Source: a bacterium (GTDB lineage: Bacteria > Krumholzibacteriota > Krumholzibacteriia > LZORAL124-64-63). From it: a stretch of 64,000 bases of DNA. The translations under genes and the position numbers were made by a program. Below are positions 7,698 through 57,989 of the stretch, piece after piece. Where the stretch lies: contig JANOEP010000016.1 of assembly GCA_031441465.1 (NCBI GenBank), positions 1-64,000 of the forward strand, in the 5' to 3' direction. Each line of letters begins with the position of its first letter. Position 1 is the first letter of the stretch. Under the pieces are notes generated by a model, which saw only the letters and a list, made by a program, of their open reading frames with translations, did not search any database and was not told where the DNA came from.

Positions 7698-7861
7698 GTG
7701 CAGAGAAGAGGGACGGACACTGAGAAGCGGGAGCGCATTCACTCAGGTTGCGCTTCGACCGGGCACGGTGGAGACTTCGACCGGCACATGTACCTTGGAC
7801 CGGAAGAAGTTCCCGTGCCCTGGTCGCGTTTCGTATCCGACAGCCACGGAGCTTTCGGCGA

Positions 7862-8389: not shown

Positions 8390-8577
8390 GACGTACCTCC
8401 CAGTGAAACTGTTCGCACATGGTCTCGCAGAAGAAAGCACAATAATTCATAGTAGGCAAATGGGGATTGCGGACAAATCATAGGCGGCATGAATACGAAA
8501 ACCGTTGTCAATCTCGGACGTCTATCCTTAACAAAGGGATCTCTCTATTTCGTGTTTAATCTCTGTTCATTTCCGCA

Positions 8578-42716: not shown

Positions 42717-42829
42717 TCCGGCCATCCGCCCGCCGGCAATGATGTGGCCGGGTATCCGAATTTTTGATATCCTGGATGCACGCACCACCCGCCTCCCAAG
42801 GCATTCGTCCTTCCCAAAGAGGTTCCGAC

Positions 42830-45800
42830 ATGCGCTTCTCGCGAATCCCCTCCTTGCTGGCCGCTACGGGCGTGCTCGCGATCTGTGCCCTGGCCTTTCA
42901 CGCCGGCACGGGCGTCCGGGATCCGCAGGACCCGTTCGCGCGCGAGATCGCCAGGCTGGAACTGCGCCGCGCCCACGCCGCGCCGGGTTCGGCCGACCGC
43001 TTCAAGGCCGGGTACAAGATCGACCGCATCGAACGCAAGCTGGCCGGAATGCCGGCCTTCGAGGCGCCCGAGGAGTTCGCGCGGCTCATGAACGAGATGC
43101 GCATCCCCGCCGACCGCAAGGAATCCGAGTACGAGGCGGGCTACCTCGTCCGCGAGCTGGGCAAGGCGCGCGCGGCGAAGCGTTCGCCCGCGACGACGCT
43201 GACCTGGGCGAACCGCGGTCCCGGCAACGTCGCCGGCCGGGCGCGCGCGATCGTGGTCGATCCCGACGACCCGACCGCCCAGACCTGGTTCATCGGCACC
43301 GCGGGCGGCGGCGTCTGGAAGACCGCCGACGGCGGGACCACCTGGGCCGACCTGACTCCGGACTTCCCGGTGCTGTCCGTCCAGGCGCTCGCCATGGCCG
43401 CGAGCAACCACAACGTCCTGTACGCCGGCACCGGCGAGAGCTTCTTCAACGTCGACACCATCAACGGCAACGGCATCCTCAAGTCGACGGACCGCGGCCT
43501 GACCTGGTCGCACCTGCCGGCGACCGTCGACGATCCGTCCTTCAACAACGTGGCCCGGATCGTGGTCGACCCCGCGAACGCGAACGTCGTGCTGGCCGTG
43601 ACCACGGTCGGGCGCTACAAGGACTCGGTGCTGCAGCGCTCGAGCATCTTCAAGTCGAGCGACGGCGGGGCGAACTGGACCGAGGTGCATGCGATCACCG
43701 ACATCGGCACCTTCGGCCGGGTCAAGAAGATCCAGCAGATCGTGGCCACGCCCGGCAACTTCAACGTGCTGTACGCGACCGTCGACGAGGGCGGCATCCT
43801 CAAGTCGACCAACGCCGGCAACACCTGGGCCTACGCCAACACCGGCATCGCCGACCTGAGCGGCCGCTTCGAGCTGGCCGTCTCGCCCGTCAGCGCGAGC
43901 CGCCTCTACGCCGCGGCCGAAGGCGTCAGCCACACCGAACTGTGGATCTCGACCAACGCCGGCGCGAGCTGGTCCGAGACCTTCGAGAGCGGGTCGGAGC
44001 CCAACTGGCTCGGCGCGCAGGGCTGGTACGACAACACCATCGTCTGCCACCCGACCGATGTGAACATCCTGTATGTCGGCGGCGTCCGGCTCTGGCAGAT
44101 CACGCTGTCAGGCACCAGCCGCACCACGTCCCAGCTGAGCGCCGGGCCCGTCCACGTGGACCACCACGGCCTCGTGGTGGTGCCGACCGGAGGCGGCGCC
44201 TGGCACCTGCTGAACACCAACGATGGCGGCGTCGGCGTGTCGGCCAGCCAGGCCGCCAACTGGAGCGCGCCCATCGACGGCATGACCACCACGCAATTCT
44301 ACGGCGTCGACAAGCGCCCCGGCGCCAGCGCCTACTTCGGCGGCATGCAGGACAACGGCACCTGGTTCTCGGCGCCCGATCCGGACCGGCTCGCCCCCTG
44401 GACCTTCGCGATCGGCGGCGACGGCTACGAAACCTCGTGGCACTTCGACGACCCGCTGAAGATGATCGGCGGCTACCAGTACAACGGGCTGCTGCGCTCG
44501 CTCGACGGCGGCCAGAGCTGGAACGGCGCCACCAACGGGTTGAGCGACACCGGCGCCGGCTTCGCCCCCTTCATCACCAAGATCGCCAAGACCAACCAGG
44601 CGCCCGACCTGCTGTTCGCCGTGGGCGGCAGCGGCGTGTGGCGTTCGACGGACTTCGGCGGCAACTGGACGCTCACGCCGGTGTCGGCGGCGACCTGGGG
44701 GACGATCGGCAGCTTCCACGGCGTGAAGATCTCGCGGGCCGATCCCGACATCGTCTGGGCGGGAGCGCGCATGGACGGCAGCGGGCGGATCCACGTCTCG
44801 ACCAATGGCGGGCTCAGCTTCAGCGCGGTGCCGAACTACACGACCGCGACCATGGGCGGCATCTCGGGTCTGGCCACCCACCCGACCAACCCTGCGGCGG
44901 CCTACGTCCTGTTCAGCTTCGCGGGGCGGCCCAAGATCCTCAGGACGAACGACCTGGGCCAGACCTGGACCGACCTCACCGGCTTCGCTGCCGGCGGCCC
45001 CAGCACCAACGGTTTCCCCGACGTCGCGGTCTACGATCTGCAGGTCTTCTCCGACGATCCCGACCACCTCTGGGCCGGCACGGAGATCGGCCTGGTCGAG
45101 TCGCTGGACGGCGGCGCCAGCTGGGCGCTCGCCGACAACGGCCTGCCCGCCGTGGCGATCTGGTCGATGACCGAGGTCGAGGACGAGGTCGTGATCGGCA
45201 GCCACGGCCGCGGCATCTGGAGTGTGAAGTTCCCCTCGCTGACGTCAGGCAAGACCTACAAGCCGCTGATCGACGCGCTCTACCAGGGTCCAGACGGGCT
45301 GCTGAGCGTCGACCTGAACCTGCGGTCCGCGTACGACTCGACCCAGGTCTTCGTCGACGGCGCCCGGCGGGCCACCCTGCCGGCCAGCGGGTTCCAGCAG
45401 GACGCTCTGGTCCAGCTGCCGGTGTTGAGCGCCGGCCAGCGCCTCGTCTTCGCCCGCGCCTTCCGCGGCGGGGTCGCCTATGACTCGGTGACCCGCGACC
45501 TCGAGGTGTACCTGTACGCCGCGCCGGTCTCCGCCTACACGAACAATTTCAACGCGTCGGGCGACTTCGTCGGCAGCGGTTTCACGATCGGCGGCTACGC
45601 CGGCTTCAGCAACGGCGCCCTGCATTTCCCGCACAATTATCCCGACAACGCCGCGTACACGGCTATGCTCGCCGTGCCGATCATCGTCGCCCAGGAAAAC
45701 GCCTACGTCTCCTTCGACGAGGTCGTGCTGGTCGAGCCGGGCGAACCGGGCAGCGTCTTCGGCGACAGCGACTTCTGGGACTACGTGATCCTGGAGGGCA

Positions 45801-46354
45801 GCAAGGACGGGTCTAACTGGGTGCCGATCGCCGACGGCTACGATTGTCGTCGCGACGCCGCCTGGGTCACCGCCTGGGACAACGGCACGCCGGGCAGTTC
45901 CTCACTGCTGCGGCCGCACGTGATCGACCTGCACGACACCTTCGTCGTGCGCGACACGATCCTGCTGCGCTTCCGTCTCTACGCCGACAGCGCCGTCAAC
46001 GGCTGGGGTTGGGTCGTCGACAACCTGTCGATCCAGGTCGGCAGCCCGACCGGCGCGGGGGACGGCACGCCGGCGCGCGGCGCGACGCTGGCGCAGAACG
46101 CGCCCAACCCGTTCAACCCGTCCACCGTCATTCGCTACTCGCTGCCGCAGGCCGGACCGGTGAGCCTGCGCATCTACGACGTGCGCGGGCGGCAGGTGCG
46201 GAGCCTCGTCGAGGGGGGGCAGTCCGCCGGCGAACACGTGGTCGTCTGGGACGGACGCGACGACCGGGGGGGCCACGCCGCCAGCGGCGCCTACGTCTAC
46301 CGCCTGCAGGCGGACGGGAAGTCGCAGCAGCGCAACATGATGCTCGTCAGGTGA
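42830..46354 (+). CDS. Large secreted BNR/Asp-box beta-propeller protein with C-terminal FlgD-Ig domain
   Basis: Repeated SxDGGxxW boxes, GPGNVAGR, GGMQDNG, SHGRG; QNAPNPFNP...WDGRD tail. Confidence 0.88.
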   Translation: MRFSRIPSLLAATGVLAICALAFHAGTGVRDPQDPFAREIARLELRRAHAAPGSADRFKAGYKIDRIERKLAGMPAFEAPEEFARLMNEMRIPADRKESEYEAGYLVRELGKARAAKRSPATTLTWANRGPGNVAGRARAIVVDPDDPTAQTWFIGTAGGGVWKTADGGTTWADLTPDFPVLSVQALAMAASNHNVLYAGTGESFFNVDTINGNGILKSTDRGLTWSHLPATVDDPSFNNVARIVVDPANANVVLAVTTVGRYKDSVLQRSSIFKSSDGGANWTEVHAITDIGTFGRVKKIQQIVATPGNFNVLYATVDEGGILKSTNAGNTWAYANTGIADLSGRFELAVSPVSASRLYAAAEGVSHTELWISTNAGASWSETFESGSEPNWLGAQGWYDNTIVCHPTDVNILYVGGVRLWQITLSGTSRTTSQLSAGPVHVDHHGLVVVPTGGGAWHLLNTNDGGVGVSASQAANWSAPIDGMTTTQFYGVDKRPGASAYFGGMQDNGTWFSAPDPDRLAPWTFAIGGDGYETSWHFDDPLKMIGGYQYNGLLRSLDGGQSWNGATNGLSDTGAGFAPFITKIAKTNQAPDLLFAVGGSGVWRSTDFGGNWTLTPVSAATWGTIGSFHGVKISRADPDIVWAGARMDGSGRIHVSTNGGLSFSAVPNYTTATMGGISGLATHPTNPAAAYVLFSFAGRPKILRTNDLGQTWTDLTGFAAGGPSTNGFPDVAVYDLQVFSDDPDHLWAGTEIGLVESLDGGASWALADNGLPAVAIWSMTEVEDEVVIGSHGRGIWSVKFPSLTSGKTYKPLIDALYQGPDGLLSVDLNLRSAYDSTQVFVDGARRATLPASGFQQDALVQLPVLSAGQRLVFARAFRGGVAYDSVTRDLEVYLYAAPVSAYTNNFNASGDFVGSGFTIGGYAGFSNGALHFPHNYPDNAAYTAMLAVPIIVAQENAYVSFDEVVLVEPGEPGSVFGDSDFWDYVILEGSKDGSNWVPIADGYDCRRDAAWVTAWDNGTPGSSSLLRPHVIDLHDTFVVRDTILLRFRLYADSAVNGWGWVVDNLSIQVGSPTGAGDGTPARGATLAQNAPNPFNPSTVIRYSLPQAGPVSLRIYDVRGRQVRSLVEGGQSAGEHVVVWDGRDDRGGHAASGAYVYRLQADGKSQQRNMMLVR

Positions 46355-46388
46355 GACGCCCGCCGGCGCATCGCCGCCGGCGTCTTTT
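46354..46388 (+). terminator. Probable Rho-independent terminator
   Basis: AGACGCC...GGCGTCT stem followed by TTT at the stop codon. Confidence 0.55.
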
Positions 46389-46539
46389 GGAATCCGGATT
46401 TGCCGGGGGACGGGGCCGCGTGATCACGCGCGGCCCCGTCTTCCGTTTCCGGTGTGGTGGGCGTAGAATGGAAGCAGCGCATCCCGTCCGGATATCCGTG
46501 GGACGGCAGCGTGCGATCGAACTTGTCATGGGGGGGGCC

Positions 46540-48054
46540 ATGTCGAACCACAATGCGAAGCCATCGTTCGGTATCCTGATGCCGACCCTGCTCGCCTGCC
46601 TGGCCTGCGCCGTCACGACGGCGGCGACGCCGAACGAAACCAAGATCCAGGCCGCCGACGCGGCGTTCGGCGACCGTTTCGGCTGCAGCCTCGCCGTGTC
46701 GGGCGGCCTCGCCCTGATCGGAGCGCAGGCCAACGACGACGACGGCGGCGATTCCGGCTGCGCCTACGTCCTGGATCTGGACGGGTACACCGAGATCCGC
46801 AAGTTGAGGTCCGCAGACGCCGCCGGCGGCGACTACTTCGGCTGCGCGGTAGGGCTTTGCGGGCAGCGTGCCGTGATCGGCGCGCTGCGGGACGACAACA
46901 CCGCGACCGACGCCGGAGCGGCCTACGTCTTCGACGCGCCCGAAGGGATCGAACGCCGGAAACTCGTGGCCGCCGACGCCGCGGCCAACGATCAGTTCGG
47001 CTGCGCCGTGGCCGTCTCGGACTCGTTCGTCCTGGCGGGCGCCCGCTACTGCGACTCCAGCGTCGCGATCTATGACAGCGGCGCGGCGTACCTGTTCGAA
47101 CCGGACACCGGCGTGGAGAAGTTCAAGCTGATCGCATCGGACTACGGCCGTCAGGACATGTTCGGGTATGCCGTGGCGGTCTCGGACTCGTTCGCGGTGA
47201 TCGGCGCTCCCATGTGGGACGACATCGGCAGGACGGACTGCGGCGCGGTCTACGTCTTCGATCCGCGGACCGGCGTCGAGATCCGGCGGTTGACCGCCAG
47301 CGACCGGGGCGCCTACGACCGTTTCGGCAACGCGGTGGCGCTCTGCGGCCGCACCCTGCTGGTCGGCGCCTACTGGGGCGGCGGGGACGACGACGCCGGC
47401 GCGGCCTACGTCTTCGACATCGCCACAGGTGTCGAACTGCGCAAGCTGACCCCCGCGGACGCGGACTACGGCGACTGGTTCGGCAGCTCCGTCGCGCTCG
47501 CAGGCGGACTGGCCGTGATCGGCGCCTCCCAGCAGGGCTACGGCACGCCGCGGGCGGGGTCGTCCTACGTCTTCAACGTCGCGACGGGTGCCGAGCTGCT
47601 GCGGCTGGCCGCTTCCGACGGCGCCCAGAACGAGGATTTCGGTATCGCGGTCGGCATCTCCGGCGATCTGGTCCTGGTCGGCGCCGACAAGGACGGCAAC
47701 ATCGCTATCAACGCCGGCGCGGTCTACGCCTTCGCACCCGTCATCGACACCACGGATGCCGGACCGGCGCCGGCGGCGCGTCTCGTCGTGCGCAACCATC
47801 CCAATCCGTTCAATCCCGCGACGGAGATCAGTATTACCCTGGCGCATGACGCGGTCGTCTCGGTCAGCATCTACGGCGCGAACGGGGAACTCCGGTGCAC
47901 GCTGTTGGCCGGATCGCTCCGGCCCGCCGGCGAGGTCCGCCTCGCCTGGGACGGCTGCGGCGACGACGGGCGGGATTTGCCGAGCGGCGTCTACTTCTGC
48001 GAAGTCAGGACGCAAACGGAGCGGTCGGCGCACAAGATGATCCTGCAGAGATGA
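46540..48054 (+). CDS. Secreted FG-GAP repeat propeller protein with C-terminal FlgD-Ig domain
   Basis: Seven DxFGxxVA..GA...GAAYVF repeats; NHPNPFNP...WDG tail. Confidence 0.88.
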   Translation: MSNHNAKPSFGILMPTLLACLACAVTTAATPNETKIQAADAAFGDRFGCSLAVSGGLALIGAQANDDDGGDSGCAYVLDLDGYTEIRKLRSADAAGGDYFGCAVGLCGQRAVIGALRDDNTATDAGAAYVFDAPEGIERRKLVAADAAANDQFGCAVAVSDSFVLAGARYCDSSVAIYDSGAAYLFEPDTGVEKFKLIASDYGRQDMFGYAVAVSDSFAVIGAPMWDDIGRTDCGAVYVFDPRTGVEIRRLTASDRGAYDRFGNAVALCGRTLLVGAYWGGGDDDAGAAYVFDIATGVELRKLTPADADYGDWFGSSVALAGGLAVIGASQQGYGTPRAGSSYVFNVATGAELLRLAASDGAQNEDFGIAVGISGDLVLVGADKDGNIAINAGAVYAFAPVIDTTDAGPAPAARLVVRNHPNPFNPATEISITLAHDAVVSVSIYGANGELRCTLLAGSLRPAGEVRLAWDGCGDDGRDLPSGVYFCEVRTQTERSAHKMILQR

Positions 48055-48090: not shown

Positions 48091-48999
48091 CTAGATGTCG
48101 TCTCCCTGCGTCACGCACAGTTCCAGCAGCCAGTCACGGAACACCGCGACGCGGTGGAGGTCCGCCTTGCGCTCGGGGTGGACGAGGTAGTAGGCGTGCT
48201 CGCTCCTCACCGGCCGGTCGATCGCGACGACGAGCCGACCGCTCGCTATCTCGTCCTGGATCAGAAACCGCGGCAGGACCGCGAGTCCGAGTCCGGCGAT
48301 GGCGGCTTGGATGACCATGTGGAACTGTTCGAATCTCGGCCCCATGCGGCCGTCGATGTCCTCCACGCCACAGGCGCGGAGCCATGCGTGCCAGGCCTGC
48401 GGCCGGGTCGTGTGCTGCAGGAGCGTGTAGCGGCCCACGTCCTGGGGACGAGCCAGTCTGGCGTCTCCGAGCAGCGACGGCGCCCCCACCGGCACGACGA
48501 CCTCGCCCATCAGCTGGCGGCAGATCGCACCCGGCCAGATCTCGCTGCCGAAGTGGATGGCCACGTCGATCTCGCTGCCCGCGAAGTCGAACGGCCTCAC
48601 CTGCGTCACCAGGTTGAGCTGGATGTCGGGATGCCGCGAGGTGAAGTCGCCGAGACGGGGGATGAGCCACCGCGATCCGAAGGTCGGCAGCAGGGCGACG
48701 GTCAGCACGCCGCCGCCGCTGCCGTAGGCCATCAGCTGCAGAGTCGCCGCCTCGGCGCGGTCGAGCAGGTCGCGCACGGCGGCGGCGTAGGTTTCGCCGG
48801 GTTCGGTCAGGACCAGCCGCTGCTTGAGACGGCGGAACAGCGGCCTCCCTACGTACTCCTCGAGTTGCCGGATCTGGCGGCTCACCGCGCTCTGCGTGAC
48901 GTTCAGCTCGCGCGCCGCCCGGGTAAAGCTCATGTGGCGCACGGAGGCCTCGAAGTACTGGAGCGCGGTGAGCGAGGGCAGGATTCGCTTCGAAGTCAT
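48091..48999 (-). CDS. LysR-family regulator (GcvA subfamily)
   Basis: SFTRAARELNVTQSAVSRQI, WLIPRL, DVAIH; divergent from the operon at 49191. Confidence 0.93.
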   Translation of the reverse strand: MTSKRILPSLTALQYFEASVRHMSFTRAARELNVTQSAVSRQIRQLEEYVGRPLFRRLKQRLVLTEPGETYAAAVRDLLDRAEAATLQLMAYGSGGGVLTVALLPTFGSRWLIPRLGDFTSRHPDIQLNLVTQVRPFDFAGSEIDVAIHFGSEIWPGAICRQLMGEVVVPVGAPSLLGDARLARPQDVGRYTLLQHTTRPQAWHAWLRACGVEDIDGRMGPRFEQFHMVIQAAIAGLGLAVLPRFLIQDEIASGRLVVAIDRPVRSEHAYYLVHPERKADLHRVAVFRDWLLELCVTQGDDI

Positions 49000-49190
49000 G
49001 ACTTTTTAGAACAGGCTCCTGATAAATCATCGTTTGGGTCTGGGGCGAAGATGGAACATAATTCCCATCACAGCAACGAGAAACATGCATCTTCGACAAG
49101 TAGATTCGTTTGCGGGAGTATCTGCGATCATTCCAATACCGCATGGATAGGCTGAGCAAGTCAGCCGATCCCGGGCCCCAAGGAGGTACC

Positions 49191-50309
49191 ATGAGCAAGT
49201 ACAAGATCGCCTGGTTGCCCGGCGACGGCGTCGGCATCGAGGTCATGGAGTCGACCAGGATCTGCCTCGACGCCCTCAAGTTCGACGCCGCCTATGTGCA
49301 CGGCGACATCGGGTGGGAGTTCTGGTGCAAGGAGGGTGACGCTTTTCCCCGGCGCACCGTCGATCTCCTGGGGAACTGCGACGCGGCCCTGTTCGGCGCC
49401 ATCACCTCCAAGCCCGTGAAGGACGCGGAGCGCGAGCTCGTTCCCGAGCTGCAGGGCAAGGGCTTGGTCTACCGCAGCCCCATCGTCCGCATGCGGCAGT
49501 CGTTCGACCTCTACACCTGCCTGCGGCCCTGCAAGGCCTACCCGGGCAACCCCCTCAACTACGCGGAAGGCATCGATCTGGTGGTCTTCCGGGAGAACAC
49601 GGAAGATCTCTATGCCGGCGTCGAGTTCAGCCCGGTCCCCGACGAACTCGTCGATGTCCTGAGCCGGCTCAGCAAGCCGTTCTCCCATTTCGCCGCGCTG
49701 CCGGGCAGCGACTACGCCATCACCTGCAAGATCAACTCGAAGAAGGGCTGCGAACGGATCATCCGCGCCGCCTTCGAATACGCCAAGAAGTTCGGCTACC
49801 CCAAAGTCACCGTGATCCACAAGGCGAACGTGGTGCGTGCGACCGAAGGCATGTTCCTGGAGATCGGGAAGCGCGTCGCCAAGGACTACCCGGGGATCCA
49901 GATGGACGACGCCAACATCGACGCCATCTGCATGTGGCTCCTCAAGAACCCCAAGAGCTACGGTGTGCTCGTCGCCACCAACATGTTCGGCGACATCGTC
50001 AGCGACCTCGCCGCGCAGATGGTGGGCGGCCTCGGCTTCGGCTGCTCCGGCAACATCGGCGAGAAGCTCGCCGTGTTCGAGCCGAGCCACGGCAGCGCGC
50101 CCAAGTACGCCGGCCAGAACAAGGTGAACCCCATCGCCACCATCCTCGCCGGTAAGATGATGCTGGACTGGCTGGGCGAGACCGACAAGGGCGCCCGGCT
50201 CGAGAAGGCGGTCGCCCGGATCATCGCCGAAGGCGACGTGCGCACCTACGACATGGGCGGCAGCGCCACGACCCTGGAGATGGGCGAGGCGATCGCCAGG
50301 AAGGTGTAG
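49191..50309 (+). CDS. Isocitrate/isopropylmalate (beta-decarboxylating) dehydrogenase family protein
   Basis: LPGDGVGIEV, RENTEDLY, HKANV, NMFGDIVSDL, FEPSHGSAP. Confidence 0.93.
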   Translation: MSKYKIAWLPGDGVGIEVMESTRICLDALKFDAAYVHGDIGWEFWCKEGDAFPRRTVDLLGNCDAALFGAITSKPVKDAERELVPELQGKGLVYRSPIVRMRQSFDLYTCLRPCKAYPGNPLNYAEGIDLVVFRENTEDLYAGVEFSPVPDELVDVLSRLSKPFSHFAALPGSDYAITCKINSKKGCERIIRAAFEYAKKFGYPKVTVIHKANVVRATEGMFLEIGKRVAKDYPGIQMDDANIDAICMWLLKNPKSYGVLVATNMFGDIVSDLAAQMVGGLGFGCSGNIGEKLAVFEPSHGSAPKYAGQNKVNPIATILAGKMMLDWLGETDKGARLEKAVARIIAEGDVRTYDMGGSATTLEMGEAIARKV

Positions 50310-50313
50310 CGCG

Positions 50314-51213
50314 ATGGCCGAGATCATCATCCACGAGGTCGGCCCCCGTGACGGCCTGCAGGTCGAGAAGCAGGTGGTCCCGACCGACAAGAAGCTCGCG
50401 TGGATCCGGTCGCTCGTCGCCGCGGGCCTGGACATCGTCCAGGTGGGCTCGTTCGTGCACCCGGAGAAGGTGCCGCAGATGGCCGACACGGACGCGCTCT
50501 TCCGCGCGCTCGGCGCCGAGCCGAGAGGCGAGACGATCCTCTCGGGCCTCGTGCTCAACGAGAAGGGCCTCGAGCGCGGGCTCGCGTGCGGCGTCGACAT
50601 GTTCTGCCTCGGGGTCTCGGCCTCCGAGACTCACAGCATGAAGAACACCGGCATGGGCTCCGGGGAGGCGCAGCGCCGCATCATCGCCACGGCGGGGGAA
50701 GCGGTAGCGGCCGGCAAGAAAGTCCAGGTTTCGGTGCAGAGCGCCTTCGGTTGCGGCTTCGAGGGTCCGATCCCGGAGGTGCGGGTCCTCGGCATCGTGC
50801 GCGCCTACCTCGAGGCCGGACTCACGAACATCAGTCTCGCCGACACCGCCGGCCACGCGCACCCGGAGCAGGTGCGGCGGTTGTTCGGCGGGATCCTGCG
50901 CCTCGCGCCGGAGATCCGCTGCACGTGCCACTTCCACGACACCTACGGTCTCGGCATGGCCAACATCTACGCCGCCTCGGAGTCGGGGGTCACCAGCTTC
51001 GAGACCTCGTTCGCCGGCCTGGGCGGCTGTCCGTTCACCAAGGTCGCGGCCGGCAACGTGGCCACCGAGGATCTGGTCCACGCCCTCCGGCGCGGCGGCC
51101 TGCGTCCGGAGATCGATCTCGACGGGATCGTCGCCGTGGCCCGCGAGGTCGCGGCGCATTTCGGGCGTGACATGCCGGGCCGGGTCCACAAGACCGGCCC
51201 GCTCCCCTACTAG
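50314..51213 (+). CDS. HMG-CoA lyase family (DRE-TIM) protein
   Basis: EVGPRDGLQ, LADT, HFHDTYG, GLGGCPF, GNVATED. Confidence 0.92.
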   Translation: MAEIIIHEVGPRDGLQVEKQVVPTDKKLAWIRSLVAAGLDIVQVGSFVHPEKVPQMADTDALFRALGAEPRGETILSGLVLNEKGLERGLACGVDMFCLGVSASETHSMKNTGMGSGEAQRRIIATAGEAVAAGKKVQVSVQSAFGCGFEGPIPEVRVLGIVRAYLEAGLTNISLADTAGHAHPEQVRRLFGGILRLAPEIRCTCHFHDTYGLGMANIYAASESGVTSFETSFAGLGGCPFTKVAAGNVATEDLVHALRRGGLRPEIDLDGIVAVAREVAAHFGRDMPGRVHKTGPLPY

Positions 51214-51225
51214 GCAGGTGATCCG

Positions 51226-52431
51226 ATGACCGACCAGAAACGCGTGCTCGACGGCATCAAGGTGCTCGACCTCACGAACGTGCTCTCCGGCCCGTTCGCC
51301 TCGCTCCACCTGGCGCTCCTGGGCGCCGAGGTCATCAAGATCGAGAACCCCAAGGACGGCGATCTGGCGCGCAAGCTGGGAATCGTCCCCGAGTACAACA
51401 AGCAACTGATGGGGACGAGCTTCCTGGCGCAGAACTGCAACAAGAAGTCGGTGACCCTCAACACCAAGTCGCCGGACGGCAAGGAGATCTTCAAGCGGCT
51501 CGTCGAAGACGTCGACGTGGTGATCGAGAACTTCCGCCCCGGCGTCATGGACCGTCTCGGGCTCGGCTACGACGTCCTGCGCGGGATCAACCCGACGCTG
51601 GTCTACTGCGCGATCTCCGGCTTCGGGCAGACCGGCCCGGACGCCGACAAACCGGCCTACGATCAGATCATCCAGGGGCTCTCCGGCGAGATGGCGATCA
51701 ACGGCGACGAGCGGCTGACGCCGCTGCGCGCCGGCTTCCCCGTCTGCGACACCGTGGGCGGCTTGAACGCGGCGTTCGCGGTGATGGCCGCCCTCTTCCA
51801 TCGCCAGCGGACCGGCGAGGGCCGGTTCATCGACGTCGCGCTCCTCGACTCGATCATGCCGCTCATGGGCTGGGTGGCCGCGAACCTCCTGATCGGCGGC
51901 CAGGAGCCGCCGGTCATGGGCAACGACAACTTCACGGCCGCGCCCAGCGGCACCTTCCGGACGCTCGACGGCCACATCAACATCGCCGCCAACAAGCAGG
52001 AACAGTGGGAGGCGGTCTGCGACGTCCTCGAACTCACGGAACTGAAAGCCGATCCGCGCTTCCAGGAGCGCGACACCCGCAAGAAGAACCGCCGGGCCCT
52101 GACGCCGCTCCTCGAGGCGCGCCTCGTCGAGGGGACGACGCAGCACTGGGTCGAGTCCCTGAACGCGCGCGACGTGCCGAGCGGCGACATCCTGAGCCTG
52201 AGGCAGGCCCTGCGCCAGCCCCAGATCGCGCACCGCGGGGTCTTGCAGAAGGTGAACGTGCCGGGCCTGGGCGACATCGAGGTCTTCGGCCTCACCGCCC
52301 TGTTCAACGGCGAGTCGGGCCCGGTCACCACGCCGCCGCCGACGCTCGGGCAGCACAACGCCGAGGTTCTCGGCCGCTTGGGCTTCACCGCGGATCAGCT
52401 CGTCGAACTCAAGCAGAAGGCAGTCATCTGA
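51226..52431 (+). CDS. CaiB/BaiF family III CoA transferase
   Basis: VLDL..SGP, GAEVIKIE, NKKSV, ENFRPG, ISGFGQTGP. Confidence 0.93.
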   Translation: MTDQKRVLDGIKVLDLTNVLSGPFASLHLALLGAEVIKIENPKDGDLARKLGIVPEYNKQLMGTSFLAQNCNKKSVTLNTKSPDGKEIFKRLVEDVDVVIENFRPGVMDRLGLGYDVLRGINPTLVYCAISGFGQTGPDADKPAYDQIIQGLSGEMAINGDERLTPLRAGFPVCDTVGGLNAAFAVMAALFHRQRTGEGRFIDVALLDSIMPLMGWVAANLLIGGQEPPVMGNDNFTAAPSGTFRTLDGHINIAANKQEQWEAVCDVLELTELKADPRFQERDTRKKNRRALTPLLEARLVEGTTQHWVESLNARDVPSGDILSLRQALRQPQIAHRGVLQKVNVPGLGDIEVFGLTALFNGESGPVTTPPPTLGQHNAEVLGRLGFTADQLVELKQKAVI

Positions 52432-52457
52432 AAACCCGGACGTCACGAGGAGTCACG

Positions 52458-53750
52458 ATGGGAATGACAGTCGTCGAGAAGATCCTGGCCAGGGCGGCGG
52501 GCGCCAAAGCCGTCAGAGCCCTGGATATCGTGGAGCCGCGCGTCGATCTCGCCATGTCGCACGAGAACGCGGCCCTGGTCATCAACCAGTTCAACGAGAT
52601 CTATCTGGGCACGGATCGCGAGCCCAGGCCCTGGGATCCCACCCGCATCGCCATCATCTTCGATCACCGGGTGCCGGCCGAGGGGCCCAAGACCGCCACC
52701 AACCAGAAACTCATCCGCGGCTTCGTGGCGCGGCACGGCATCGCCAAGTTCCACGACATCCGCGGCGACCTCGGCGGCATCTGCCACCAGATCCTGCCGG
52801 AGCACGGCTACGTCCGGCCCGGCTTCGTGGTCGTCGGCACCGACAGCCACACGACCAGCCACGGAGCCCTGGGCTCCTTCGCCTTCGGCATCGGCGCCAC
52901 CGAGATGGCCTCGGTCTGGACGCTCGGCGTCGCGCTCAACATCGAGGTGCCGCCGACCATCAGGGTCGTCGTCACCGGCACATTCCAGGAGCACGTTGGG
53001 CCGAAGGATCTGATCCTGCACCTGATCGGCAGGCTCACGGCCCAGGGCGCCAATTTCCGCGTGCTCGAGTTCCACGGCGACGCGATCGCGGCGATGTCGA
53101 CGAGCGGACGTCTCACCATCTGCAACATGAGCGTCGAGGCCGGCGCCACGAGCGGCATCGTGCCCGCCGACGAAGAAACCGAGCGCTACCTGCGCCAGGA
53201 GGCCGGCGTCACCGGACCCGTCGAGCGGATCTTGCCGGACGCCGACGCCGTCTACGAGAAGGTCCTCGAGGTCGACGTATCCCGGCTCGAACCGCAGATC
53301 GCCTGCCCACACACGGTCGACAACGTGAAGCCGGTCGGCGAGGTCACCGGCAAGGCCGTCCAGCAGATCGTGATCGGCAGCTGCACGAACGGCCGCCTAG
53401 ACGACCTCGAGATCGCCGCCGGGATCCTCAAAGGCAAGCAGGTCGCTCAGGGCACGCGCATGCTGGTCTTCCCCGCCTCCGGGCGGATCTACTCCCAGGC
53501 TCTCGAGGCCGGCTACCTGCAGGAATTCATGAGGGCCGGCGCCGTGGTGATGAACTCGGGCTGCGGGCCGTGCCTGGGCATTCACCAGGGGGCGCTCGGG
53601 GACGAGGAAGTGGCGCTCGCCACCACCAACCGCAACTTCAAGGGCCGCATGGGAAACCCGAAATCCGAGGTCTACCTGTGCAGTGCGGCCGTCGCCGCGG
53701 CCAGCGCCATCACCGGCGTCATCACCGATCCGCGCACAGGAGGTCGCTGA
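52458..53750 (+). CDS. LeuC/HacA-like aconitase-family dehydratase large subunit
   Basis: FDH, GICHQ, DSHT, IGSCTNGR, GCGPCLG, NRNFKGRMG. Confidence 0.93.
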   Translation: MGMTVVEKILARAAGAKAVRALDIVEPRVDLAMSHENAALVINQFNEIYLGTDREPRPWDPTRIAIIFDHRVPAEGPKTATNQKLIRGFVARHGIAKFHDIRGDLGGICHQILPEHGYVRPGFVVVGTDSHTTSHGALGSFAFGIGATEMASVWTLGVALNIEVPPTIRVVVTGTFQEHVGPKDLILHLIGRLTAQGANFRVLEFHGDAIAAMSTSGRLTICNMSVEAGATSGIVPADEETERYLRQEAGVTGPVERILPDADAVYEKVLEVDVSRLEPQIACPHTVDNVKPVGEVTGKAVQQIVIGSCTNGRLDDLEIAAGILKGKQVAQGTRMLVFPASGRIYSQALEAGYLQEFMRAGAVVMNSGCGPCLGIHQGALGDEEVALATTNRNFKGRMGNPKSEVYLCSAAVAAASAITGVITDPRTGGR

Positions 53751-53751
53751 C

Positions 53752-54249
53752 ATGGGCAAGGTCGTACTGAAGCTCGGGAAGGACATCAGCACCGACGACA
53801 TCTACCCCGGACGGTTCATGGCCACGGTCCTCCCGACCGAAACGCCGCAGTTCTGTTTCCACGATCGCACGGAGTTCAACGCGCAGCTCAAGGCCAAGGC
53901 GATCCCGGCCGGCAGCGTCATCGTCGCCGACGAGAACTTTGGCTGCGGCTCGAGCCGCGAACAGGCGGTGAGCACGATCCGGGGCCACGAACTCGTCATC
54001 GTCGCGCGGAGCATCGCGCGCATCTTCCTGCAGAACGCCATCAACCTCGGCCTGAACCTGGTCATCTGCCCGACCATCGAGGCGCAGGAGGGGGACGAGC
54101 TCGAACTCGTTTCCGGCGGGGTGCTGAACAAGACCAGCGGCAAGGAATTCGCCACCGAGCCGCTGCCGCCTGCGCGCCAGGCGATCATCGACGCGGGAGG
54201 GCTGATCCCCTACACCCGCAAGAAACTGCTCGAACTGCCGGCTCGGTGA
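53752..54249 (+). CDS. LeuD/HacB-like dehydratase small subunit
   Basis: ISTDDIYPGR, NFGCGSSREQA, ARIFLQNAINLG. Confidence 0.92.
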   Translation: MGKVVLKLGKDISTDDIYPGRFMATVLPTETPQFCFHDRTEFNAQLKAKAIPAGSVIVADENFGCGSSREQAVSTIRGHELVIVARSIARIFLQNAINLGLNLVICPTIEAQEGDELELVSGGVLNKTSGKEFATEPLPPARQAIIDAGGLIPYTRKKLLELPAR

Positions 54250-54258
54250 TGTCAGTCG

Positions 54259-54459
54259 TCAGTCGCGGCGGCCTCGCCCGGAGGTCAGCAGCCACCCGAT
54301 CGCCGCGCCCCAGAGGACCGCGACGACCGGGTTGGCGCTGATCCGTCAGGTCGCGCCGCTGCAGTGCTGCCAGTAGTGCCAGAGATAGCCGAGCGCGCCG
54401 CCGAGGGCCGGGCCCCAGAGGCGGCGCGCCGCCGTGAGGAATTGCGGGCGCGTCGTCAC
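54259..54459 (-). CDS. DUF6132-like small membrane protein with in-frame UGA (candidate selenoprotein, 66 aa)
   Basis: GTG overlaps the upstream TGA; reads ...GYLWHYWQHCSGAT-UGA-RISANPVVAVLWGAAIGWLL; UGA (54346-54348) falls at the second Cys of the CxxGTCPITSNP motif. Confidence 0.72.
54285..54341 (-). promoter_or_regulatory. Putative bacterial SECIS hairpin
   Basis: 13-bp stem CCCGGUCGUCGCG/CGCGGCGAUCGGG (+15 to +51 from UGA, two G-U pairs), G-initiated loop at +28, outer stems GCCA/UGGC and UCAGC/GCUGA. Confidence 0.5.
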
Positions 54460-55547
54460 GGCTGCACGTAGCCCGCGGCGTGGAGCTGCTCCACGTCGGC
54501 GAAGGTGCGCGGCGGCTGCAGGTGCTTTGCCAGGAAGCGGTAGACCCGCAGCCGGATCTCCTGGGCGCCCTTCGTGTCGAGACGGTCGAAGCTGTGGCCG
54601 CCGGGCGCAGCCTCGTAGATCTCGTATTCGAACTGCTTGTCTTCGGCCTTCAGCGCCTGGATCAGGTGCTCGACCTCCAGCACGTTCACGTCCTCGTCCG
54701 TGGTGTTGGACAGCACCAGCAGGGGAGTCTTCAACTTCTGGACGTTCCACACGGGCGAGCGGCGCTTGTACTCGGCGATGTTCTCGCCGACGGTCTGGCC
54801 GATGTGGTAGTCGGCCGAGAAGTCGTCCCGGTACTCCTGGTCCAGGTAGCCCAGGCGCGCGACGATATCGCTGACCGGCACGCCGGCGTAGGCGCAGGCG
54901 TAGTCGTCGGGATGCTCGAAGACGCTCATCAGGCTGATCAGGCCGCCGTGGCTCCAGCCGATCGAGCCCACGCGGCCCGGATCGACGAAGTCGTAGTTCT
55001 CCAGGACGTAGGCGCGGCAGGCGTGGGCGTCCTCGACCTCCAGGCCGCCGTAGTCGATGCTCTCGTACATGCCGCGGCCGTAACCCGTGCTGCCGCGGTA
55101 CTCCGGCGCCACCACCACGTAACCCTGGGCCACCAGCTCGCGCACGATGTGCGTGTGGTAGGTCGTGAAGTCGGCGTGGACGCCGCCGTGCGACAGCACC
55201 AGCAGCGGCGCCTTGCGGCCGGGATCGAGGTCGCGGGGGATGAAGACGTAGGCCCAGAACTTCAGCGGGTTGCCGGCGCCGATGCCCGTGGGGTTCGTCT
55301 CCTTCCACTTCGGCGGTCCGTACAGGCGCACCTTGTCGATGTGCGCGACGTCGCCCACGCGGTCGAACCAGAGGCCGTCGTCGACCTGCTTCTGCAGTTC
55401 GTCGAGGCGGTGCCCGAGATTCTCGATCGCACCGAGCACCTCGTCGAGCTTGGCGCCGACGTCGGCGACGGGGGAGGAGGTGTCCTGGGCGAAAGCGGTC
55501 AGCGGGACCGCGGCGGCGACGAAGCAGGCCAGCAGCAGGCGACGCAT
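54456..55547 (-). CDS. Secreted S9-family alpha/beta-hydrolase peptidase
   Basis: Signal peptide, HGG, YRGSTGYG, GWSHGG nucleophile, D..V, GGHSF. Confidence 0.9.
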   Translation of the reverse strand: MRRLLLACFVAAAVPLTAFAQDTSSPVADVGAKLDEVLGAIENLGHRLDELQKQVDDGLWFDRVGDVAHIDKVRLYGPPKWKETNPTGIGAGNPLKFWAYVFIPRDLDPGRKAPLLVLSHGGVHADFTTYHTHIVRELVAQGYVVVAPEYRGSTGYGRGMYESIDYGGLEVEDAHACRAYVLENYDFVDPGRVGSIGWSHGGLISLMSVFEHPDDYACAYAGVPVSDIVARLGYLDQEYRDDFSADYHIGQTVGENIAEYKRRSPVWNVQKLKTPLLVLSNTTDEDVNVLEVEHLIQALKAEDKQFEYEIYEAAPGGHSFDRLDTKGAQEIRLRVYRFLAKHLQPPRTFADVEQLHAAGYVQP

Positions 55548-55627
55548 GGCTTCTCCTTCCGGATGACGTGCCCGGTGAGCATGGACCAAGGATACCGGCC
55601 GGTCAACCGGCCCGCAGCGGCGAAGGC

Positions 55628-56989
55628 TCAAGGCGCCTCCGCGATCGCCCACAGCAGCGCGGCGACCGCCGCCACGTTCCGCTGCAGGTCCGCGGGATCG
55701 ACCTTGTCCACGGTGTCGGCCGGGCTGTGGTGGACGTCGAAGTAGTGCTCGCCGTGGACGCGGTGCCCGATCAGGGGCACGCCGGCGTCCGCCAGGAACG
55801 AAATGTCCACGCCGCCGCCGCCGGGGGTCACCGCGTCCGCGCCCAACGATGCCAGCGGCGCGGCCAGCGCGGCGAACCGCGCGACCGTGGCGGAGTCGGC
55901 CTGGACCGTGAAGCCGGCCGGGGCGAAGCCGCCCGAGTCGCACTCCAGCGCCGCCTTGTGGCGCGGCAGCTCGTCGGCGTGAGCGCGGGCGTAGCCGCGC
56001 CCCCCCTGCTGGGTCATTTCCTCGTCGGCGTAGAGCACCACCCGCAGGGTGCGGCGCGGCGCGAGGTCCAGGCGTTTCAGCAGGAAGACCGCCTCCATGA
56101 CGATGGCGCAGCCGGCGCCGTTGTCGTGGGCGCCGCTGCCGACGTCCCACGAGTCGAGGTGGGCGCCGGCCAGGACGATCTCGTCCGGCGATTCACGGCC
56201 GGTCAGCTCGGCCACCACGTTGGCGCTGTCCGCGTCGGGCAGCTGCGATGCTCCCATCTCCAGGCGCACGCGCACCGGCGCGTCGCGGCGGGACAGGCGC
56301 GTCAGCAGGGCGGCGTCCTCCACGCTCAACGCGGCGGCGGGGATCCGCGGGATGGTGTCGCCCTTGTCGTAGCGCATGATGCCGGTGTGGGGGGTGCTGA
56401 GGCTGCGGTCGGTGACCGAGCGGATCAGGCAGCCGACCGCGCCGTGGCGGGCGGCGGCGACGGCGCCGCGGCCGCGGTATTGCACGGTCTTGCCGTACCC
56501 CTCCCAGGGCGGGTCGAACAGCACGAGGCGTCCGGCGGCCTCGGCGGCGCGCGCTTCCAACTCTTCGAAATCGCGCACGGCCAGGACCTCGGCCGTGATC
56601 CCGCCGGGCGGCGTGCCCACGCTGCCGCCGAGCCCCAGCATCGTCAGCGGCTTCTCGTAGGGTTCCAGCAGCGTGCAGGTCTCGCGGCCGCGCACCCAGT
56701 GCGGCACCGTCACCGGCTCGGCGCGCACGCCGACCAGACCGCCCGCACGCAGCCGGCGCAGGGCCCACGCGACGGCGCGGCGCTGGCCGTCCGACCCGTT
56801 CAGGCGCGGGCCCGCGGTGTCGCACAGGTCGGTCAGCAGCGCGAAGGCGGAGCTGTCGGCCAGCGCGGCGGCGACGATGCGCGCCATGGTGTCCGGTGCC
56901 GCTCGTGCGGGTGTGGAGTCGCCGAGCATGAAACCTCCCAGCGCGATGCAGATCGCGGCGATGCGGGACGGTGCGGGCGGGTGCGGCAT
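55628..56989 (-). CDS. M28 metallopeptidase (carboxypeptidase Q-like)
   Basis: GPRLNGS, PHTG, GAHLDSWD, GAHDNGAG, ADEE, HHSPADT. Confidence 0.92.
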   Translation of the reverse strand: MPHPPAPSRIAAICIALGGFMLGDSTPARAAPDTMARIVAAALADSSAFALLTDLCDTAGPRLNGSDGQRRAVAWALRRLRAGGLVGVRAEPVTVPHWVRGRETCTLLEPYEKPLTMLGLGGSVGTPPGGITAEVLAVRDFEELEARAAEAAGRLVLFDPPWEGYGKTVQYRGRGAVAAARHGAVGCLIRSVTDRSLSTPHTGIMRYDKGDTIPRIPAAALSVEDAALLTRLSRRDAPVRVRLEMGASQLPDADSANVVAELTGRESPDEIVLAGAHLDSWDVGSGAHDNGAGCAIVMEAVFLLKRLDLAPRRTLRVVLYADEEMTQQGGRGYARAHADELPRHKAALECDSGGFAPAGFTVQADSATVARFAALAAPLASLGADAVTPGGGGVDISFLADAGVPLIGHRVHGEHYFDVHHSPADTVDKVDPADLQRNVAAVAALLWAIAEAP

Positions 56990-57009
56990 GGATCCTCCGG
57001 ATCGTTCCG

Positions 57010-57885
57010 TCAGCTCATGGTGACCATCAGGATGCCGGCGATCGCCAGCGCCGAGGCCGCGAGCTTGCGCCGGGTGAACGGTTCGTGCAGGAAGAACGAG
57101 GCCAGGATCAGCACGTAGATCGTGCTGGTCTGGTTCAGGATCGCGGCGGCGCCGGCCTGGGTGTACTTCATGCCGGCGAGCCAGAACATCAGCGCCAGGT
57201 ACGAGCCCAGGATCGTGGCCGGCAGGCTGAAGCGCCAGGAGGCGTCGGGCCGGAACACGCCCAGGTAACGCCGGCGCTGCGGCGAAATCACGGCCATCGG
57301 CACCATCACGGCCAGGGCGCCGAGCTGCCGCACGGCCGTGGACCACAGCACGGGCTGACGTTCCAGCACCGGCTTGGCGATGACGACGCCCAGGGCGACG
57401 GCCGCCATGGCGGTCATGCCCATCAGCGAGCCCTTGAGCAGCGCCCGCGGCGGCAAGCCCGGCGGGGTGGGGTGGCCCGAGGCGACCAGCACCGCGGCGA
57501 TGACCGTCACCATGCCCGCCAGCTGCCACCCGTTCAGGCGCTCGCCGATCAGCAGGAACGCGAACAGCACCACCAGCGGCGAGTAGAGGCAGTCGACGAT
57601 GGCGGTGACGCCCGCCCCGACGATGTTCAGGCAGCGGTGGAAGAGGGTGTCGGCCACTGCGATGGCGATGACGCCGCTGGCCATCAGGATCAGCACGTCC
57701 CGCACCGGCGCCTCGCGCACCAGTCCCTGGCCCGACGCCAGCACCGTGACCACCAGCAGCACGCTGCTGATCCCCACCCGGAACAGGTTCAGCGCGAACG
57801 GCGAGACGGTCTCGCCCGAACGCTTCAGCAGGATGACCGCGACCGCCCAGATCACGGCGCAGAGCAGGGCGTAGAACTCTCCCAA
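57010..57885 (-). CDS. DMT/EamA-family transporter
   Basis: About 10 TM helices in two EamA repeats; TTG start. Confidence 0.88.
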   Translation of the reverse strand: MGEFYALLCAVIWAVAVILLKRSGETVSPFALNLFRVGISSVLLVVTVLASGQGLVREAPVRDVLILMASGVIAIAVADTLFHRCLNIVGAGVTAIVDCLYSPLVVLFAFLLIGERLNGWQLAGMVTVIAAVLVASGHPTPPGLPPRALLKGSLMGMTAMAAVALGVVIAKPVLERQPVLWSTAVRQLGALAVMVPMAVISPQRRRYLGVFRPDASWRFSLPATILGSYLALMFWLAGMKYTQAGAAAILNQTSTIYVLILASFFLHEPFTRRKLAASALAIAGILMVTMS

Positions 57886-57989
57886 GGCGATCTCCCGATC
57901 TGCGGCGCGGTGAATGGAGGTTGATCGGCGGTGCCGGACGTGGAATCATCGCACTGCTGCCGTCCCTTCCGCAAGCAGGGGGTTGGATC

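Follow-up and report, generated by a model that had tools for sequence, protein, structure and literature searches.

The upper half of the alpha-aminoadipate pathway, known from Thermus, fungi and the coenzyme B route of methanogens, runs through homocitrate, cis-homoaconitate, homoisocitrate and 2-oxoadipate. The same four intermediates are proposed here for a five-gene cassette from a Krumholzibacteriota bacterium, which lies beside a divergent LysR-family regulator gene in a 64,000-nucleotide stretch of contig JANOEP010000016.1 (assembly GCA_031441465.1; the whole stretch is hereafter the window). Its isomerase, encoded by LC and LD, and its dehydrogenase, DH, come from the same families as the isomerase and dehydrogenase of that pathway. 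Yet the cassette is proposed to work in the reverse direction, and in place of the synthase it encodes a CoA-transferase (CT) and a lyase of the hydroxymethylglutaryl-CoA (HMG-CoA) lyase type (LY). It also differs in detail: DH carries an NADP motif and an insert of the isocitrate dehydrogenase (IDH) type, the specificity loop of LD reads FMAT rather than YLRT, and the proteins score below the equivalog models of the pathway enzymes.

Tertiary hydroxy acids are usually cleaved by a CoA-transferase acting with a lyase, and the (R)-citramalyl-CoA lyase of Chloroflexus is an HMG-CoA-lyase-like protein of this kind. According to PMC8307300, (R)-citramalyl-CoA lyase and (R)-citramalate CoA-transferase form a reversible, indirect route to citramalate; compared by description, the Chloroflexus lyase (EC 4.1.3.46) and its succinyl-CoA:(R)-citramalate CoA-transferase (EC 2.8.3.20) pair a lyase with a family III transferase as LY and CT do, and jointly they interconvert a 2-alkylmalate with acetyl-CoA and a 2-oxoacid. 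Unlike the cassette, the Chloroflexus pair handles the C5 substrate citramalate and is unlinked to LeuCD-like or IDH-like genes. Two-step citrate cleavage, by citryl-CoA synthetase and lyase or by citrate lyase, follows the same logic of first forming a CoA or acyl carrier protein ester and then cleaving it, although it employs other enzyme families and ATP activation where the cassette would use CoA transfer. In the reductive tricarboxylic acid (TCA) cycle, reductive carboxylation and an aconitase-type isomerization precede this cleavage. The known fates of 2-oxoadipate are oxidative decarboxylation to glutaryl-CoA and, in Pseudomonas putida, an O2-dependent conversion via 2-hydroxyglutarate to 2-oxoglutarate. 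The P. putida route likewise disposes of lysine-derived 2-oxoadipate and ends in 2-oxoglutarate. Unlike these fates, the route proposed here would need neither O2 nor an acyl-CoA dehydrogenase, would fix CO2 and use NADPH, and would yield acetyl-CoA directly.

We read the cassette as the upper half of the homocitrate route run backward, taking lysine-derived 2-oxoadipate to 2-oxoglutarate and acetyl-CoA; the genomic evidence tips slightly in favor of this assignment. From gene identities, conservation, genomic context and residue patterns we infer the substrate, the direction, the cofactor and the CoA donor. DH, proposed to be an NADPH-dependent 2-oxoadipate reductive carboxylase, that is, a homoisocitrate dehydrogenase (HICDH) in reverse, would convert 2-oxoadipate, CO2 and NADPH to homoisocitrate, which LC/LD would isomerize through cis-homoaconitate to (R)-homocitrate. 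CT, the proposed acyl-CoA:homocitrate CoA-transferase, would then move CoA from a donor thioester (succinyl-CoA or acetyl-CoA) to the acetate-derived carboxyl of homocitrate, and LY, the proposed homocitryl-CoA lyase, would split homocitryl-CoA into acetyl-CoA and 2-oxoglutarate. In net terms, 2-oxoadipate would be shortened by two carbons after one CO2 had been fixed. The 2-oxoadipate would come from lysine, via saccharopine or piperideine-6-carboxylate and then 2-aminoadipate, and the 2-oxoglutarate produced would serve as amino acceptor for LKR and for aminoadipate transamination. Because the transferase and lyase keep the thioester that a synthase hydrolyzes, the sequence would be near-reversible and usable for cleavage. 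The component enzyme families are known, and the pathway itself appears undescribed: searches of a literature collection that mostly excludes subscription journals turned up neither this cluster nor "homocitryl-CoA" nor a homocitrate route running in reverse from 2-oxoadipate.

The initial annotation had described a divergent LysR gene and five tightly linked genes at 48091-54249, and all six are present over exactly that span. On the forward strand, DH (49191-50309; 372 aa; Pfam Iso_dh, 287.5 bits) is an IDH-like beta-decarboxylating dehydrogenase, LY (50314-51213; 299 aa; HMGL-like, 138.5 bits) an HMG-CoA-lyase-like acyl-CoA lyase, and CT (51226-52431; 401 aa; PF02515 CoA_transf_3, 405.5 bits across residues 8-378) a family III CoA-transferase. 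They are followed by LC (52458-53750; 430 aa), the large subunit of a LeuC/HacA-type Fe-S dehydratase that passes subfamily models, and by LD (53752-54249; 165 aa; TIGR02087, 110.3 bits, cut-off 108.95), the LeuD/HacB-type small subunit. The intergenic gaps are, in order, 4, 12, 26 and 1 nt, and no terminator-like site was found on the plus strand within the operon. Three gene starts, those of DH and LC among them, were shortened relative to the longest open reading frames (ORFs), each chosen start being preceded by a Shine-Dalgarno-like sequence; for DH, the ATG at 49191 with AAGGAGG ahead of it was preferred to the TTG at 49110, in agreement with the orthologs.

Conservation of the cassette was followed with LY as anchor. 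A first scan with LY against species-representative genomes returned 389 relatives, of which the best 80 loci were analyzed; a second, using a Clostridia ortholog of LY as query, added 79 loci, three on contigs already in the first set, for a combined 159 loci on about 156 distinct contigs. The order DH-LY-CT-LC-LD on one strand is kept in 52 of the first 80 loci (49 with gaps below 700 nt), and the five genes are likewise complete in 47 of the 79 second-scan loci, counts that refute the idea of a non-conserved gene set and place the arrangement well outside coincidence. The remainder of the first scan comprises 16 loci that are interrupted by contig ends but compatible with the cassette, and 12 that lack at least one gene despite DNA being present. 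Orthologs are 60-97% identical to the window's proteins, with medians of 71-76%. By record titles, carriers belong to Latescibacterota, Gemmatimonadota, Acidobacteriota, Eisenbacteria, Elusimicrobia, Zixibacteria, Myxococcota, Chlorobiaceae, Ignavibacteria, Bacteroidota, Gammaproteobacteria, Clostridia, Chloroflexota, Aminicenantes, Omnitrophota and Caldithrix. The window's phylum itself shows a patchy distribution, 13 of 208 genomes having an LY ortholog that is 64% or more identical, and no neighbor conserved across phyla was found among the related loci. An order kept across phyla, this patchiness and the missing constant neighbor identify the five genes as a self-contained, horizontally spread module. 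The broader claim, that this mobile cassette gives bacteria from sediment, groundwater and sludge, in twelve or more phyla, a widespread, O2-independent degradation of lysine and 2-aminoadipate by exact reversal of the homocitrate pathway, stands evenly balanced in our judgment.

The assignment to lysine draws on genes found beside the cassette in other phyla. In six Elusimicrobia loci (L026, L058, L088, L089, L090 and L091), LKR and SDH come after LD in the same orientation. One of these loci, L090, has the order DH-LY-CT-LC-LD-LKR-SDH-P6CDH, where P6CDH is L-piperideine-6-carboxylate dehydrogenase, and there the ORFs of LD and LKR share 4 nt. In L088, an aldehyde:ferredoxin oxidoreductase (AOR) comes directly after SDH, at the position of P6CDH in L090, and is a non-orthologous replacement oxidizing the same semialdehyde. 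All five tested Elusimicrobia genomes with the fused operon contain lysA (451-475 bits; cut-off 297.9); because lysine is thus made by the diaminopimelate route, the fused operon is catabolic. None of the other 76 LKR-SDH loci fetched has a cassette within 10 kb.

An independent association is seen in Chloroflexota. Here P6CDH (767 and 768.5 bits; cut-off 730) stands beside the cassette in L235 and L236, where it is divergent, and in L246, whose order is DAO-P6CDH-DH-LY-CT-LC-LD. In L225, P6CDH is found 5 kb 3' of LD with a DAO gene in between, and in L193 a DAO-family oxidoreductase and an AOR-like gene sit immediately 5' of DH. Additionally, a saccharopine-dehydrogenase-family gene of 407-411 aa occurs at or near the cassette in nine Chloroflexota loci: immediately 3' of LD in four (L187, L188, L191, L221), 5' of DH and co-oriented with it in three (with a 57-bp gap in L249) and upstream on the opposite strand in two. 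The lysine-type neighbors all converge on 2-aminoadipate semialdehyde/piperideine-6-carboxylate, hence on 2-aminoadipate, and no other amino-acid-specific catabolic enzyme was found to recur beside the cassette among the related loci. Reductive carboxylation of 2-oxoadipate or a branched 2-oxoacid, followed by isomerization, CoA activation and cleavage, had been the first of two options in the initial annotation; gene context in two phyla now favors it, with 2-oxoadipate as the probable substrate.

The window's genome (3.49 Mb, 96.8% complete) also encodes the saccharopine enzymes, far from the cassette. LKR, SDH and P6CDH form an operon on one strand of contig C34 (L086:5326-9592, minus strand), in which LKR shares 43% identity with an Elusimicrobia LKR, SDH shows Sacchrp_dh domains and P6CDH reaches 776 bits with NF050084 (cut-off 730). 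A glutamate dehydrogenase gene lies three genes beyond P6CDH. An apparent LKR/SDH fusion of 873 aa at this place was rejected as an over-extended SDH ORF with a spurious N-terminal part, LKR being a separate upstream gene.

The same genome lacks partners of biosynthetic elongation pathways. By profile search LY is its sole PF00682/HMGL-family gene, so the absence of LeuA, CimA and homocitrate synthase noted for the window holds genome-wide. Neither ilvD nor an ilvC above cut-off was found in it, and the cassette therefore cannot serve leucine or isoleucine biosynthesis with a substitute for the synthase. Aminoadipate-based lysine biosynthesis of the LysW/LysX type was likewise ruled out here, the genome having no LysX; dapA is present, and no lysA above cut-off was found. 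The organism looks like a peptide-dependent auxotroph for branched-chain amino acids. Conservation, model scores and these missing partners together support the initial annotation's view of an elongation-like module with a CoA-transferase and a lyase in the synthase's place.

LY and CT resemble HMG-CoA lyase and SUGCT in sequence, although their setting points to another substrate. With the HMG-CoA lyase subfamily model NF004283, LY scores 273.4 bits, above the cut-off of 246, whereas the top score among 2-alkylmalate synthase models for homocitrate, isopropylmalate and citramalate is 70.2 bits (TIGR02660; cut-off 462.9). Its 299 residues form an HMGL-like domain alone, with neither the length nor the C-terminal domain of a synthase. 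The best solved relatives are HMG-CoA lyase 6nds for LY (212 bits) and succinate--hydroxymethylglutarate CoA-transferase (SUGCT) 9br6 for CT (274 bits). The LY motifs GPRDGLQ, HFHDTYG and GLGGCPF align to the HMG-CoA lyases 6nds, 1ydo and 2ftp and thus keep RDG, HxH and GGCP; R-D, the H-x-H metal ligands and the G-G-C-P loop are the catalytic motifs of these enzymes. The best NCBIfam model for CT, succinate--glutarate CoA-transferase NF052585, scores 292.5 bits against a cut-off of 750, and the closest relatives of CT, which are succinate--HMG/glutarate CoA-transferases, act on C5-C6 dicarboxylates. HMG does not belong to the alpha-hydroxy acids, and LeuCD/IDH-type chemistry cannot produce it. 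The constant linkage of LY and CT to LC/LD and DH implies a 2-alkylmalate-type substrate, and operon context argues for a 3-hydroxy-acyl-CoA other than HMG-CoA as the substrate of LY.

The best NCBIfam models of DH are AksF2 homoisocitrate dehydrogenase (323.2 bits; cut-off 540) and LEU3_arch (316; cut-off 409.8), and it stays below the cut-offs of AksF (296.5/500), iso_homocit_dh (183.2/680), the NADP-dependent IDH model TIGR00183 (213.4 vs 567.3) and the LeuB equivalog TIGR00169 (196.6 vs 353.2). Among PDB matches, Thermus HICDH is best at 238 bits, followed by an IDH at 235, the best isopropylmalate dehydrogenase (IPMDH) at 173 and E. coli IDH at about 168. Alignment with E. coli IDH, E. 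coli LeuB and the genome's own NADP-IDH shows that DH retains the E. coli IDH catalytic residues R119, R129, R153, Y160, K230, D283, D307 and D311, as well as Ser113, which is Gly in LeuB. Asn115, which together with Ser113 serves the gamma-carboxylate in IDH and is present in both true isocitrate dehydrogenases aligned, is Ile in DH, and Thermus HICDH also has Ile at this position. A citrate/isocitrate reading, comparable to citrate cleavage in the reductive TCA cycle, was set aside, since DH lacks Asn115 and the genome holds its own aconitase and NADP-IDH. DH further contains the IDH-type insert after RENTEDLYAG, which LeuB lacks, and the cofactor motif APKYAGQ of E. coli IDH (Lys344/Tyr345 type) rather than the APDIAG of LeuB. 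Motifs of the APKYAGQ type set NADP specificity, and the predicted use of NADP(H) by DH suits the reductive direction. Ser72, Ile84 and Arg85 are substrate-loop residues of Thermus HICDH, and DH keeps the equivalents of the first two.

LC and LD make up an archaeal-type two-subunit dehydratase of the aconitase family, an assignment based on model scores and motifs. LC passes NF001614 (538 bits), TIGR02086 (502.6; cut-off 410.15) and the hacA_fam model TIGR01343 (498.1; cut-off 385.7), falls below the equivalogs HacA_Meth (459.5/550), LEU2 (424.4/610.65) and leuC (228.8/560.25), and contains the Fe-S cluster cysteine motifs GSCTNGR and NSGCGPC in its translation. LD falls below HacB2 (107.4/230), TIGR02084 (111.2/245.85) and leuD (38.9/116.25). 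Its specificity loop, GRFMATVLPTETPQ, hardly varies among orthologs from six further lineages; the paralogs in the same genome have other sequences there. In this loop, LD has FMAT where MJ1277 has YLVY, MJ1271 YLRT and Pyrococcus 1v7l YNLT; LD shares the Thr with both solved homoaconitase small subunits. Taken together, the cassette's sequences point to a 2-alkylmalate-type tri- or dicarboxylate other than isocitrate and leave its side chain unfixed.

Several observations weigh against 2-oxoadipate as the substrate. None of the five proteins reaches an NCBIfam equivalog cut-off, only subfamily models being passed. Among solved structures, LC matches the large subunit of the M. jannaschii isopropylmalate/citramalate isomerase (390 bits) slightly better than that of homoaconitase (370), and LD matches the isopropylmalate isomerase small subunit MJ1277 (103.8 bits) slightly better than the homoaconitase small subunit MJ1271 (90.6) and better than Pyrococcus 1v7l (74.5). 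LD is missing the Arg found in the methanogen homoaconitase loop (YLRT), and Arg85 of Thermus HICDH is Val in DH; an R85V variant of the Thermus enzyme reportedly keeps homoisocitrate activity. Lysine-related neighbors occur in 16 of the 159 LY-anchored loci, plus four Elusimicrobia loci found via SDH, and come from essentially two phyla, hence from few independent events. With the queries used, P6CDH exceeds its cut-off in 23 of 50 carrier genomes (four more are near or partial) and the Elusimicrobia-type SDH is found in 15 of 50; incompleteness of metagenome-assembled genomes and alternative enzymes may partly account for the missing genes, though not demonstrably. In the window's phylum, P6CDH is present in 124 of 208 genomes against 13 of 208 for the cassette, so that its profile does not discriminate, and no dedicated 2-aminoadipate transaminase was found in the window's genome, the best match reaching 167.7 bits (cut-off 650).

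Possible redundancy within the genome points the same way, and a fused LeuCD-like gene on contig C39 counts here too. A DH paralog with 62% identity on contig C13 (L084:5698-6855, plus strand), which could belong to a second system, shares the RSPIV loop and APKY motif and has no adjoining lyase, transferase or dehydratase. Contig C61 encodes a fungal-type fused homoaconitase (L082:5420-7465, minus strand; TIGR00139, 729.7 bits, cut-off 529.9) and an MmgE/PrpD-family dehydratase (L082:7974-9347, minus strand), one gene apart, with a HigA-type antitoxin gene on the opposite strand between them. The C61 pair may represent a second homocitrate/homoaconitate system or a methylcitrate-like one, in a genome without homocitrate synthase. 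Together, the C61 fusion and the DH paralog could constitute a second homoaconitate system that would leave the cassette partly redundant.

A number of these features suit the main rival, an unlikely but credible alternative in which the same chain-shortening chemistry acts on another 2-oxoacid. From threonine or methionine, 2-oxobutyrate would pass through 3-methylmalate, citraconate, (R)-citramalate and (R)-citramalyl-CoA to pyruvate and acetyl-CoA; from leucine, 2-oxoisocaproate would pass through the isopropylmalates to 2-oxoisovalerate and acetyl-CoA. For the isomerase subunits, the best match is the M. jannaschii isopropylmalate/citramalate isomerase, the LD loop lacks a basic residue, and DH has hydrophobic Ile and Val at the positions of IDH Asn115 and Thermus HICDH Arg85. 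An HMGL-like (R)-citramalyl-CoA lyase and a family III (R)-citramalate CoA-transferase are a known reversible pair (PMC8307300). Carriers are peptide degraders, in which peptidases, amino-acid permeases and LIV-type ABC transporters, together with EamA and regulator genes, are frequent cassette neighbors, and P6CDH or SDH went undetected in half or more of the carrier genomes. Against this, the recurrent neighbors of the cassette include no threonine dehydratase, methionine gamma-lyase or branched-chain aminotransferase. DH is closer to HICDH and IDH than to any IPMDH and keeps the Ser113 that LeuB lacks. Moreover, a substrate of this kind leaves unexplained both the fusions with LKR, SDH, P6CDH or AOR and the presence of DAO, P6CDH and saccharopine-dehydrogenase-family genes next to the cassette.

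The uneven constancy of the five genes bears on a distinctly improbable alternative, the degradation of an external or stored 2-alkylmalate or tricarboxylate such as homocitrate, citramalate or citraconate, with LC/LD, CT and LY as the main line and DH as a side branch or an oxidative enzyme. Of all the cassette, LY and CT stay together most constantly, CT adjoining LY in 76 of the 80 first-scan loci. An adjacent DH is missing from eight of the 12 incomplete first-scan loci (four of these also lack other genes of the cassette) and from 12 of the 79 second-scan loci, which keep LY-CT-LC-LD; LC/LD are missing from the first-scan loci L023, L031, L039 and L052. A divergent LysR gene, as in the window's lineage, is typical of inducible catabolism. 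However, DH is the first operon gene in most loci, all five tested genomes without DH at the cassette hold a 54-65% identical DH elsewhere, no transporter conserved with the cassette across phyla was found among the related loci, and the lysine-gene context indicates an internal precursor.

More doubtful still is a forward, biosynthetic use, in which LY would join acetyl-CoA and a 2-oxoacid into an acyl-CoA and CT would release the acid with the thioester conserved, before LC/LD and DH complete an elongation by one carbon, for example from 2-oxoglutarate to 2-oxoadipate. The gene set is indeed of the leu/lys elongation type with LY and CT in the place of the synthase, LY is the genome's only synthase-superfamily member, and a thioester-conserving route would be expected to be near-reversible. 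Yet the window's genome has no evident consumer of the product (no ilvC, ilvD or LysX), and condensation without thioester hydrolysis would have no driving force. In Elusimicrobia, lysA is present in all five fused-operon genomes tested, and the co-operonic P6CDH is an aldehyde dehydrogenase, which indicates the catabolic direction; to our knowledge, such enzymes oxidize the semialdehyde and do not reduce the free acid. The second option of the initial annotation, a thioester-conserving replacement for the synthase, is accordingly disfavored by the missing LysX, by lysA and by the catabolic aldehyde dehydrogenase. Finally, the idea of chance neighbors, with an ordinary HMG-CoA lyase and HMG/glutarate CoA-transferase of leucine or ketone-body metabolism beside ordinary leuB and leuCD, is hardly credible: LY does score above the cut-off of the HMG-CoA lyase subfamily model and is publicly annotated as HMG-CoA lyase, and the best relatives of CT act on glutarate and HMG, but the five-gene order is kept across many phyla, the genome has no leuA, ilvC, ilvD or other HMGL gene, and DH, LC and LD score below the cut-offs of the respective leuB, leuC and leuD equivalogs.

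If the cassette does reverse the homocitrate route from 2-oxoadipate, it would provide a new end of lysine degradation leading into central metabolism without oxygen, glutaryl-CoA dehydrogenase or B12, and it would regenerate the 2-oxoglutarate used by the saccharopine steps. It would also illustrate a design rule, whereby 2-oxoacid elongation becomes reversible when a CoA-transferase and a lyase replace a thioester-hydrolyzing synthase, and a CO2-fixing principle for shortening 2-oxoacid chains. Thousands of metagenomic genes labeled "hydroxymethylglutaryl-CoA lyase" or "3-isopropylmalate dehydratase/dehydrogenase" would be renamed. The same genes would offer candidate enzymes for homocitrate and 2-oxoadipate chemistry.

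In the window, the regulator gene (48091-48999, minus strand) encodes a 302-aa LysR-family protein of the GcvA subfamily with Pfam HTH_1 and LysR_substrate domains (NF008352, 321.5 bits; cut-off 288). A LysR ortholog of at least 60% identity in the same divergent placement accompanies 16 of the 80 related loci, all of them closer relatives, and such a regulator would make the operon inducible in the window's lineage. The 191-bp region between LysR and DH (49000-49190), which has reduced G+C, probably has a control function. Alignment of seven close relatives reveals the conserved blocks CTGATAAATCATCGTTTG, CATAATTC and GATCATTCCAATACCGCATGG, the first of which contains the palindrome TGATAAATCA, a candidate LysR box. 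A scan of the region found no sigma-70 consensus promoter. Contigs from RNA libraries, namely three metatranscriptome-labeled runs from two studies and one run whose RNA label was guessed, cover all the genes at a likeness of at least 88%, and some bridge the DH/LY, LY/CT and LC/LD junctions. DNA carry-over is possible in these libraries and a contig spanning two genes does not equal a single transcript, while uncovered parts and differences in depth carry no information, so they give a weak hint that close relatives may express the operon.

Genes flanking the cassette in the window are functionally unrelated to it. Upstream of the LysR gene (42764-48054, plus strand), two very large secreted-type proteins are encoded, one with Sortilin/BNR repeats and the other with seven FG-GAP repeats, each with a FlgD_ig-like C-terminus. 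Downstream (54456-57991, minus strand) are genes for an S9 prolyl-oligopeptidase-family protein and an M28 peptidase.

Two candidates for additional partners among the related loci were dropped. A class III aminotransferase "family" in seven loci proved heterogeneous, with putrescine-type and GABA/2-aminoadipate-type members that are mostly non-adjacent, and is given little weight. A group of aldehyde dehydrogenases at about 380 bits in 11 carriers, considered as alternative aminoadipate-semialdehyde dehydrogenases, is 36-39% identical to P6CDH and occurs in unrelated contexts.

Some loci show further arrangements. In the Elusimicrobia locus L031, the cassette ends after CT, and a nucleotidyltransferase/HEPN pair occupies the LC/LD position (8344-9049, plus strand). 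L181-L183, on the Clostridia- or Aminicenantes-labeled contigs of L072 and L080, carry an acyl-CoA dehydrogenase gene immediately 5' of DH on the same strand (about 6548-7756, plus strand), with a NamZ-like gene upstream; its best NCBIfam matches are acryloyl-CoA reductase-like and glutaryl-CoA dehydrogenase Acd-like, all below cut-off. In the window's own genome, contig C39 contains an apparent LeuCD fusion (L083:3608-5767, minus strand), a single ORF with LeuC-like and LeuD-like parts whose small-subunit loop reads RYLAIT.

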